Below the pieces are notes generated by a model that searched no databases, was not told the DNA's origin, and worked only from the letters and a program-made list of their open reading frames with translations. Source: Octopus vulgaris (Eukaryota). Taken from it: a stretch of DNA of 64,000 nucleotides. The position numbers were made by a program, and so were the translations under genes. Below, piece after piece: positions 4,835-36,171 of this stretch. Location: NCBI GenBank assembly GCA_951406725.2, contig CATOCA020000008.1, forward strand, positions 1 through 64,000, written 5' to 3'. The first letter of the stretch is position 1; each line of letters opens with the position of its first letter.

Positions 4835-5720
4835 CATATATATATATATATATATATATATATATATATATATATATATATATATATATATATATATATA
4901 TATATATATATATATATATATATATATATATATATATATATATATATATATATATATATATATATATATATATATATATATATATATATATGTATATATA
5001 TATATATATATATATATATATATATATATATATATATATATATATATATATATATATATATATATATGTATATATATATGTATATATATATATATGTATA
5101 TATATATATATGTATATATATATATATATATATATATATATATATATATATATATATATATATATATATATATATATATATATATATATATATATATATA
5201 TATATATATATATATATATATATATATATATATATATATATATGTATATATATATATATATGTATATATATATATATATATATATATATATATATATATA
5301 TATATATATGTATATATATATATATATATATATATATATATATATATATATATATATATATGTATATGTATATATATATATATATATATATATATATATA
5401 TATATATATATATGTATATATATATATATATATATATATATATATATATATATATATATATGTATATATATGTATATATATATATATGTATATATGTATA
5501 TATATATATATATATATATATATATATATATATATATATATGTATATATATATATATATATATATATGTATATATATATATATATATATATATATATATA
5601 TATATATATATATATATATATATATATATATATATATATATATATATATATATATATATATATATATATATATATATATATATATATATATATATATATA
5701 TATATATATATATATATATA
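4835..5720. repeat. (TA)n microsatellite array
   Basis: ~890 bp of TA with TG interruptions. Confidence 0.99.
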
Positions 5721-8692
5721 CTCTTTTACTCTTTTACTTGTTTCAGCCATCCGGCTGAGGCCATGCTGGGGCACCGCCCTTGTTGCTACCCTCTCTAAGT
5801 CCAGTTTGCCGTGGCTGGCCACTGATCTAAGAGAGAGTTTGTAGCTGCTGCCCTTAGGTTACCTTCGTACCTTGCAGTGGGTTCATCTGGGATCCCGGAA
5901 AGCAGCTTGTCTAGATGTTTTTTGAAAATGTCCACATCCGCATCATGTAGATCTCTTAGTTTTCTTGGCAGTTTGTTGAAAAGCTGAGGGCCCCTGAACC
6001 CCAGGCTATTACAGTATCTGCTCCTTACCCTGGATGTGGAAGACGGGACCTTTGGCACCACACAGTGACGTCCTGTACGGGGATTGGAACAGCTCTCAAT
6101 TCCAAAATTTGGTGCTAGTCCCTCCAGGATTTTCCATATGTATATCACTGCATATCTCTCTCGTCTTCGTTCCAAGGAGTACAAATTGAGTTCCCTAAGC
6201 CTCTCCCAATAGTTCTTTTCTTTCATGGTGGAAATCCTCTTGGTGAAATGTCTTTGGATTGTCTCAAGCTCTGTGGTTAGTTTGACACTATGCGGTGACC
6301 ACAGTTGGGAGCAGTAGTCCAGGCGGCTTAGGACAAATGTCCTCCATAGTGTCAACATGGTCTCGCAGTCTCTTGTCCGGAATGTCCTCAGGATCCAGCC
6401 AGTGAGTCGTCTGCACATTGTCGCCACCTTCGCGATGTGTGAAGAAAAAGATGCATCGTCACTCATGTCTATCCCCAGGTCCCGTATTGATTTCGATACT
6501 GGGATTTCGATCCCTCCTGGACCAGTATAGTTGTGTTGTAATGTATATGTGTTTACAGCTTGATATTGTAAGGCTTGAAATTTACCAGCATTAAATTGCA
6601 TGTTGTTGTCTTCAGCCCATTTGTATATGGCATCCAGATCTTGTTGTAAAAGGTCAGCATCAGCTGGGTTTTTGATTGCCTGTGCTACCTTTGTGTCATC
6701 AGCATAGCTAGTGAGGGATGTTGTTTGTGCTACCAAGGGCATGTCAGAGAGCGCCACCAAAAACAGCAAGGGTCCCAAGACTGTGCCCTGTGGCACCCCG
6801 CTTGCTATTGGTGTCTTTCCCGAGAGGGCTCCATTGGCTGCAACCATCTGGCTTCTGTCCTTCAGGAAGTCATGTATCCACTCACCTACTTTTCCTGTTA
6901 TGCCGAGTCTGAGTAATTTGTGACATATCACTCCGTGGTCGACTTTGTCAAAGGCCTTCGCAAAGTCGAGATATACCACATCCACCTGTGAGCGATCCAG
7001 TAGTTGTTTCAGTACCCAGTCGTAGTGTTGTAACAGCTGCGTAAGGCAGCTTCTTCCTGGGCGAAAGCCATGCTGTGTGTCAGTGAGACGGTTAGTTTCT
7101 TCGAGGAACGTGATCAGTTTTTTTCTGATGATTCGTTCCATGACCTTACTTATGTGTGACGTCAGGGAGACTGGCCTGTAGTTTTTGGCCTCTGCTCTAC
7201 TCCCTCCTTTGTGGATAGGGCATATGGTGCCTTCTTTTAGCGCCCTGGGCAGTTTACCGTTAGCCAAGGAACCACTGAAGAGCTTCTTCAGTGGTCCCGC
7301 TAGGGCATGCCTGCATGTTTTTAGGAGGACTGCTGGGAATCCATCTGGTCCAGCAGCTGAGTTTATTCTCATTTCTTCTATGGCAGATATTACATCCCTC
7401 TCTGTTATGTCTATGTGGTCGATGGTTGTTGTTTGGTTTTGGAGTGTTGTGGCATCAAAGAAAACTTCTGGGTTTGTGATTTGCATGTGCCCCAGAGGGG
7501 ATGTGAACACACTTTTATACTGTTCCTTTAGTATTTCACTTATCCCTTGGGGGTCCTCAGTTAGAGAGCCCTTTTTATCAAAGAGTGGGCCAATCTTGCA
7601 GTGTACCGAGGTGGTTTCTTTCGCAAATTTAAAGAAGGCTTTAGGGTTTGTTTTAATATTCTCTATGGCCCTGGCTTCTCTCTCTGCCCTCTCCTTCTCA
7701 TAGGAAAGTTTGAGTGCAGTTTCCGTTTCAAAAAGTTTCAGGTGGAGTCCCTCATTGTTTCTCTGCCGTGCATTCAGTTGCTTCGAGAGCTTAGCTCTTC
7801 GCCTCATAAGTATTTTCCTGTCTCTGGGAATAACGTTCCTATGCCCGCTGGCTTTTTTCTCCGGGACAAACTTATGGCATATGTTCTGTATTGTTGTCAT
7901 GAAATGTTGGAAATGTGTGTTGGTGTCTTGTGTGGTGATGAAGTCACTCCAGTCATGTTTTCGGATCTCTTCGTTGATCTTCTTCCAGTTTGCCTTATGG
8001 AAGTTTAGACTGGATAGGCCTGTGGTATTTTCTAATGGCTGCGTCTCAACTAACTCTCTCATACCATATATCATTACCTCTACTAAGTTGTGATCTGAGA
8101 GAATTGTTGGTGTTACCATTATGTTGTGGATGAGCATCGGGTTGCTTGTGAAACAGAGGTCCAAGACATTCTCACCTCTTGTTGGCCAAAGCACTGCTTG
8201 CTCCATGAAAAACTTGCGTGTGAGAGCCAACAAGGACTCTGTCTGTCTCTGTTCAAGTGATGTCATTCCAGGGAGGAGATGGCCATCTGGCCATTTGACT
8301 TTCGGAAGGTTAAAATCTCCCAGCAGTAGAATGGTGTTACCCTGGTCCAGTTTGTCCAGGACTTCTTCTATTCTTCTGAGGCTATCTTCAAACACTCCTT
8401 CATGACTAGGGGTGTCTGGTGGCCGATATGTGACACATATTACTATTTTCGGTTGTTTCATGTGTACTATCAGTGTGTCACAGACTGAGTTTGAGTGTGT
8501 CAACAGTACTATGGGTGTGACATCTTCACGGACGTACAGGGCAACCCCACCATGAGTTCTTTCCTTCCTGTCCGACCGAAAACAGTATACTTCGGTATGT
8601 GTATTTCTGCATCTGCTATACTGCTTGACAGGTGCGTTTCAGTCAGCGCTATGCATATTGCATGGTTGCTTGTGCTCAAGTCCCTAAGGTAG
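5721..8692 (-). mobile_element. CR1-group LINE, family B, 5'-truncated within APE; (TAAAAGAG)n tail
   Basis: 902-aa APE-RT ORF, conserved 3' hairpin motif at 5740..5778, flanked by TA on both sides. Confidence 0.95.
5795..8503 (-). CDS. LINE ORF2: partial APE endonuclease plus uninterrupted reverse transcriptase
   Basis: [70 protein letters not shown]. The frameshifted N-terminal APE piece continues to ~8690. Confidence 0.92.
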
Positions 8693-35072: not shown

Positions 35073-36171
35073 TATATGTATATATATATGTATATATGTA
35101 TATATATATGTATATATATATGAATATATATATATGTATATATGTATATATATATGTATCTATATATGTATATATATATGTATATATATATGTATATATG
35201 TATATATATATGTATGTATATATGTATATATATATATATATATATGTATATATATATGTATATATGTATATATATATATATGTATATATATATGTATATA
35301 TGTATATATATATATGTATATATATGTATATATATATATATATATATATGTATATATATGTATATATATATATATATATATATATATATATATATATATA
35401 TATATATATATATATATATATATATATATATATATATATATATATATATGTATATGTATATGTATATATATATATATATATATATATATATGTATATATA
35501 TATGTATATATATGTATATATATATATGTATATATATATGTATATATATATATATATATATGTATATATATATGTATATATATATATATATATATATATA
35601 TATATATGTATATATATATATATATATATATGTATATATATATATATGTATATATATATGTATATATATATGTATATATATGTATATATATATATATATA
35701 TATATATATATATATATATATATATGTATATATATGTATATATATATATATATGTATATATATATGTATATATATATGTATATATATATGTATATATATA
35801 TATATGTATATATATATGTATATGTATATATATATGTATATATATATATATATATATATATATATGTATATATATATGTATATATATATGTATATATATA
35901 TGTATATATGTATATATGTATATATGTATATATATATGTATATATGTATATATGTATATATATATATATATATATATGTATATATGTATATATGTATATA
36001 TATGTATATATATGTATATATATATGTATATATATATGTATATATATATGTATATATATATGTATATATATATATATATATATATATATATATATATGTA
36101 TATATATATGTATATATATATGTATATATATATATGTATATATATATATGTATATATATATATATATATAT
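35073..36171. repeat. (TA)n/(TATG) array
   Basis: direct reading. Confidence 0.99.

Follow-up and report, generated by a model that had tools for sequence, protein, structure and literature searches.

Kilobase-long TA arrays in a 64,000-nt stretch of Octopus vulgaris DNA (contig CATOCA020000008.1, positions 1 to 64,000; here called the window) hold copies of several retroelements, which raises the question of whether those elements choose alternating TA DNA as their target. A sequence-only reading had proposed that they do, naming five intervals that abut (TA)n on both sides and ascribing them to CR1-group LINEs and a SINE. With flanks scored as TA-like when at least 10 of 12 bases alternated TA on both sides, all five intervals (5/5) were indeed TA-flanked.

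Two TA arrays and their inserts

The window contains two compound TA arrays, at 4837..12651 and 26125..40615. The first begins with a TG-interrupted (TA)n array (4837..5720), which forms the 3' flank of a LINE copy at 5721..8692 (family A, below). It continues with (TA)6 and a 31-bp piece (8693..8738), a mostly pure (TA)n array (8739..9678) and, after a second insert, (TA)12 as its right edge (12628..12651). The flanking DNA is therefore short in two places: the 5' side of 5721..8692 has just (TA)6 and the 31-bp piece before the long array starts, and the 3' side of 12628 has just (TA)12. The 31-bp piece itself (8708..8738) contains a short palindrome and has no other copy in the window. Exon-like segments with AG/GT borders, as judged by eye, lie at 13251..13298 and 15489..15556, and a host gene may contain the first array or lie close to it.

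The second compound array starts with a TA array carrying TTTGTATTT interruptions (26125..29154), split by two inserts, in which the commonest interruption is identical in all 3 segments. It continues with a TG-interrupted TA array (29864..40615), which three inserts split into four segments (29864..30732, 32521..33138, 35074..36170 and 39752..40615); TG is the commonest interruption in 4/4. The interruption motif matches on both sides of each of the 6 inserts here, except for the insert at the TTTGTATTT/TG boundary, and this points to insertion into pre-existing arrays. The first array is less clear, being TG-interrupted to the left of the family A copy and mostly pure to the right. An old SINE-like piece (40616..40860) has its 3' side against the right-hand edge of the second array, which it could have seeded. 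Altogether, 7,751 bp of array hold 8 inserts from two unrelated systems, CR1-tailed and Penelope-type.

The presence of the second system bears on the proposal that TA adjacency is special to an APE endonuclease lineage, which did not hold up: three non-CR1, hammerhead-bearing elements lie in the second array. These are a short Penelope-type terminal piece (27638..27790, plus strand) with a minimal hammerhead motif at 27734..27784, a Penelope/retrozyme-like element (29155..29863, minus strand) with 185-bp direct repeats and a hammerhead motif at 29382..29484, and a Penelope-type element with inverted ends (36171..39751) and hammerheads at 36187..36237 (minus) and 39614..39664 (plus). Scored with a custom minimal pattern, the window has 4 hammerhead motifs, all inside these three inserts (100 shuffles: mean 0.03, maximum 1); hammerheads were absent among the best 150 of 254 Rfam rows, the Rfam output consisting of low-complexity noise. 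It is the combination of hammerheads with direct or inverted terminal repeats that suggests a Penelope-type identity, and canonical Penelope-like elements (PLEs) carry hammerheads according to the available text of PMC8557442. Elsewhere in the window, a Penelope-like remnant (50279..51651) includes a GIY-YIG match (51067..51651) just under the cut-off and has a perfect 74-bp palindrome, with (TA)18 at its centre, in front of it, and a 520-bp inverted repeat (49728..50248) adjoins another TA array.

CR1-like families and a tail-sharing SINE

The LINE guests fall into three CR1-like families. The claim of several CR1-group families is thus sound in outline, but the five intervals are not five families: those starting at 5721 and 33139 belong to a single one, which we call family A. 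The copy at 5721..8692 (minus strand) is 5'-truncated near the endonuclease start, ends in the tail (TAAAAGAG)x2 and encodes an APE endonuclease and a reverse transcriptase (RT) in an ORF at 5795..8638 (Pfam RVT_1, E 2.3e-30; Exo_endo_phos_2, E 1.4e-12). Its frame is broken near 8578, where it differs by one base from 11 contigs. The second copy (33139..35073, minus strand), also 5'-truncated and with a (TAAAAGAG)x3 tail, is 99.7% identical to 5721..7646, differing at 5 of 1902 nt. Family C (30733..32520, minus strand) is 5'-truncated, has an (AATC)x5 tail and is 71% identical to family A in nucleotides and 69% in amino acids. A longer family C copy (approximately 1..3735, minus strand), the 5' end of which is approximate and the 3' end beyond the window, includes the endonuclease and is 98.4% identical to 30934..32520 (26 differences in 1587 nt). 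A CCCH zinc-finger match upstream in this copy falls below the curated cut-off and lies in a broken frame (2573..3595); further upstream, tandem repeats of approximately 150 bp (3743..4200) are possibly its 5' UTR. Family B is represented by a 3' piece (11951..12627, plus strand) with an internal deletion of approximately 440-455 nt, frameshifts, a (TAAGGATT)x2 tail and 74-76% nucleotide identity to family C.

In families A and C, an APE-type endonuclease stands N-terminal to the RT in one ORF (Pfam Exo_endo_phos_2 and RVT_1), the joint profile aligns to L1 ORF2p across both domains, and the 3' end consists of a stem-loop followed by a short tandem-repeat tail, with no poly(A). An RT phylogeny, which had been suggested as a check, placed families A and C with proteins P0001-P0004 (including an Argonauta protein) in one clade (support 100/99); this tree of 47 rows, which covers families A and C but not B, separates the two from RTE-type rows only. 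We take both families to be CR1 from their C-terminal SLERRR motif and their anatomy, not from reference sequences. The best named protein relatives come from Argonauta hians (56% and 63%) and, for the RTE-type body described below, Octopus bimaculoides (75%); RT matches in the Atlas were unnamed clusters. A family A query against the X1 contigs, from which repeat ends are absent, returned 3,276 records, and the 1,720 at 99% identity or above show a young, multi-copy family. Nine X1 contigs carry a further element type that has the last 55 nt in common. Three raw read runs gave 0, 6 and 0 family A reads, which, being cut at repeats, are uninformative on flanks.

The interval 9679..12628, previously read as a CR1 element throughout, is mostly something else: 9679 to approximately 11950 is RTE-type, and the CR1-like part is confined to approximately 11951..12627, the family B piece described above. 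The RTE-type body (9679..11950, plus strand) has a PHD-like insert, is 5'-truncated and has no 3' end of its own. Its 2.27 kb ORF, an open frame of 787 codons, ends about ten codons before the end of its relative P0121, and it is 75% identical to an O. bimaculoides protein. The RT is 27% identical in amino acids to that of family A and clusters with RTE-type rows (100/100); the RTE label is one that we presume from sequence features. Most simply, the whole piece would be the product of one insertion in which the template changed from CR1 RNA to RTE RNA; the chimera may be either such a single switch or a member of a chimeric family.

The SINE guest (28178..28600, minus strand) contains an internal (TA)14 at 28410..28437 and has a 3' tail in common with the CR1-like LINEs, 83% identical to that of family A over 60 nt. 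Tails had been described as family-specific, and TAAAAGAG, TAAGGATT and AATC are found as described; the SINE tail, however, is an AAAGAG-unit variant outside those three. ARAGORN found 0 tRNA genes in the SINE head, which looks tRNA-like by eye only. A terminal stem-loop is common to the tails of families A, B and C and of three SINE copies, with 5 pairs kept in 6/6 and both-sided changes at 2 pairs, suggesting that the SINE most likely uses the machinery of the CR1-like lineage. Both older SINE copies lie outside the arrays' long TA runs: one (14057..14392, plus strand) has AT-rich flanks, a possible AAATATAA duplication (by eye) and no TA array, and the other, a 3' piece (14493..14671, minus strand), is followed after its tail by ATATATAT alone.

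A peptide translated from the SINE tail occurs in gene models of O. vulgaris and O. bimaculoides; together with the named protein relatives, this by itself marks the host as an octopod, probably of the genus Octopus. Several Octopus gene models (P0334-P0336, P0339 and P0341) begin or end with the antisense tail at 28192..28281, often with a shared start, as would be expected from a cryptic splice acceptor, whether truly used or wrongly predicted. A Tyr-Ile run, the trace that a TA flank would leave upstream, was found in 0/8 SINE-derived octopus peptides (10 matches), approximately three of which were informative as most begin within the tail, and in 0/332 homologous proteins, approximately 6 of them from the octopod group; the test is weak, as gene callers and clustering disfavour such runs. 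Tail and SINE-core patterns gave 0 matches in five scans of viral, genome and metagenome contigs, and a protein scan of viral contigs confirmed 0/88 candidates. We also considered, and rejected, that the arrays were born inside this SINE, since no SINE head is found at array edges.

TA flanks and how they may have arisen

How unusual is the association? With the 8 inserts removed, 14.1% of 49,489 window positions are TA-like on both sides, which gives a probability of 5.5e-5 for five of five intervals being TA-flanked by chance. Seven CR1-type 3' ends bear tails, and 5/7 adjoin (TA) runs of at least 10 units, one of them TG-interrupted (P for at least 5/7, 9e-4). These P values overstate the significance because the five copies occupy no more than two compound arrays and the window was selected for its pattern; if the arrays grew after insertion, the 14.1% background would be too high and the significance greater. 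The local TA pattern is real and strong in the window, far above the window's own background, so that a mere background frequency of TA adjacency, named beforehand as a reason to drop the idea, is not what is seen locally. The remaining two tail-bearing ends, one on ATATATAT and one AT-rich, belong to the two older SINE copies, and these 2/7 ends without long TA count against a strict preference. On the other side of the elements, 4/4 5'-truncated LINE pieces have TA at their 5' side, each with a different truncation point, which a carried tail cannot explain. At the 3' junctions, inspected by eye, the next one or two tail bases (TA or A) match the array; such a match is weak and likely to occur by chance, and it agrees with the 3' overlaps of one to several bases with the target reported for CR1, L2 and RTE in the available text of PMC6007223.

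The endonuclease lends little support to specialisation. Its hairpin ahead of the catalytic aspartate is exactly as long as that of 66/66 scorable non-octopod relatives (50 not scorable); a 2-residue insertion follows YRPP in 3/3 scorable proteins of the clade, versus a spacing of 6 in 61/64 scorable others (52 not scorable). A structure search with the endonuclease alone returned no solved relative. Among distant relatives (23-47% identity), (TA)4 or more occurred within 900 nt after the match in 4/53 scored loci (of 80; those with a match reaching query residue 830 or so or beyond, at which true 3' ends are not fixed). The preference, if real, would therefore not be general to the wider group and would be restricted to the octopod clade or its vicinity.

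Other elements in the window are placed differently. A LINE at 42941..45400 (minus strand, with an RT match), which we take to be Dong/R4-like from a motif, is flanked and interrupted by (TAA)n (42856..42941 and 43548..43644); it sits in (TAA)n and not in (TA)n, consistent with the known Dong target and with element-specific targets. A decayed mariner (23871..25139), a PIF1-helicase (Helitron-like) fragment (52233..53589) and an older RTE copy (15833..17620) all lie outside TA arrays. A tandem duplication of approximately 3.8-4.2 kb units (55348..63364; 98.5% identity) has a 182-bp tandem SINE-like array in each copy, and a further copy of that 182-bp repeat adjoins (TA)18 at 63719.

We lean towards a reading in which TA repeats are preferred, strongly but not strictly, by a CR1-like lineage of octopods, represented here by three or more families, and by the tail-sharing SINE, while Penelope-type elements share the arrays. 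The CR1-like LINEs and the SINE would insert by target-primed reverse transcription, with alternating TA DNA preferred. The APE endonuclease may nick TA-rich DNA, the nicked strand could pair with the opening 1-2 bases of the following tail unit and prime synthesis, and 5'-truncated copies would thereby gain TA on both sides; Penelope-type elements would use the same arrays independently.

The most serious competitor, which we nevertheless hold to be rather unlikely, is that long TA arrays, easily unwound or broken, are a general landing site that catches any active retroelement, with no TA-selective endonuclease involved. (TA)n is fragile, the 8 inserts amount to roughly one per kb of array, the RTE body adjoins TA at 9679, and another SINE family adjoins the (TA)18 at 63719 (1/2 ends scored). 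Against this, the guests are limited to CR1-tailed and Penelope-type elements, the latter with a TA bias published in PMC8557442 (available text), while the Dong-like element, the older RTE and the mariner are all outside the arrays, the RTE piece lacks its own 3' end, and the 3' ends that are present carry complete tails. Were it true, the locus would simply illustrate that TA arrays act as insertion hotspots in general. Passive build-up, in which near-random or merely AT-preferring insertions survive better in TA arrays, has been put forward to explain Drosophila Waldo copies close to CA repeats (PMC3812793, available text) and suits the short AT-rich flanks of the older SINE copies; it is distinctly improbable here, given that many old repeats are tolerated elsewhere in the window and that sorting has had little time to act on the array copies, which are young (98-99.7% identical to one another).

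That the elements seed the TA, by copying along a TA-containing tail or flank that later expands, has a parallel in the CR1-driven microsatellite seeding reported in snakes (PMC8303610, available text) and a possible source in the internal (TA)14 of the SINE. It seems very improbable when TA also lies 5' of copies with four different truncation points, the tails are not TA repeats and the SINE head is missing from array edges. Equally hard to credit is an assembly artefact or local duplication, with repeats joined via TA arrays or a C-then-A block copied. The order C then A, on the minus strand in each case, does occur twice (1..8692 and 30733..35073), and no junction-spanning read was seen; reads and contigs are cut at repeats. 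A single duplication of C plus A is nonetheless rejected by the unequal divergence of the two pairs (26/1587 versus 5/1902; Fisher p 1.3e-5); tail lengths also differ between pairs, and the interruption patterns run on across the inserts.

Known microsatellite-targeting elements

Beyond the preference itself, a bolder statement is tentative and, to us, somewhat short of probable: that octopods have a CR1 lineage with an APE endonuclease specialised on (TA)n, which mobilises an abundant internal-TA SINE and, by convergence with Penelope-type elements, uses kilobase TA arrays as a shared landing site. Co-evolution of the insertions with the arrays, as proposed at first, would be a further and speculative step. 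If true, the specialisation would have no precedent that literature searches could find, either as a microsatellite specialist of CR1 type or as an APE that targets TA. Target specificity of APE-type LINEs is listed for few clades, with TA absent from the listed targets. Found in a CR1-type element, it would have arisen anew and independently, and the small endonuclease could serve for testing TA recognition. No report of a TA-targeting CR1 was found in the literature available to us, including the accessible parts of PMC8967140, PMC5786205, PMC10294476 and bioRxiv 10.64898/2026.07.22.740005; (TA)n is not searchable as a string, and Repbase Reports and most subscription papers were outside the scope. 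In O. vulgaris, LINEs make up approximately 13% and SINEs approximately 12% of the genome, and 13 CR1 families were recently active (PMC13282606, available text). With such shares, a TA preference would influence the landing sites of much of this DNA and could account in part for hotspots of transposable elements. A target is regarded as specific when it makes up >20% of a family's genomic flanks (PMC4494074, available text); the corresponding figure here, 5/7 on long TA, refers to ends in the window only.

The octopus copies resemble CR1-clade LINEs with partner SINEs, such as oyster CR1-1_CGi and its Vhc_1 SINEs (PMC4758252), in having APE plus RT, a 3' stem-loop, a short tandem-repeat tail, 5' truncation and a tail-sharing SINE; no target preference is given for those in the available text of PMC4758252 and PMC13282606. 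For PLEs, (TA)n is reported as a preferred Naiad target and a microsatellite bias is mentioned for Neptune, which fits the hammerhead-bearing guests of the octopus arrays; these PLEs have a GIY-YIG endonuclease and another class of RT, Naiads are without canonical hammerheads, and the likeness has no bearing on the CR1-like copies (PMC8557442, available text). The rice MITE Micron likewise inserts into TA microsatellites but is a DNA transposon (cited in PMC3812793, available text).

Dong is an R4-clade element with a restriction-like, not an APE, endonuclease. A review lists it among the APE types (PMC3812793, available text). Together with Waldo (ACAY), Mino (AC), Kibi (TC), Koshi (TTC) and crocodilian Tx1 (TTCC/TTTC), Dong (TAA) is among the non-LTR elements described as targeting microsatellites (PMC3812793 and PMC4494074, available text). 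The octopus copies are like these in being LINEs embedded in a simple repeat that flanks them at both ends; as far as those texts go, the known elements are neither CR1 nor TA-targeting, whereas the octopus lineage combines several tail variants with one candidate target.
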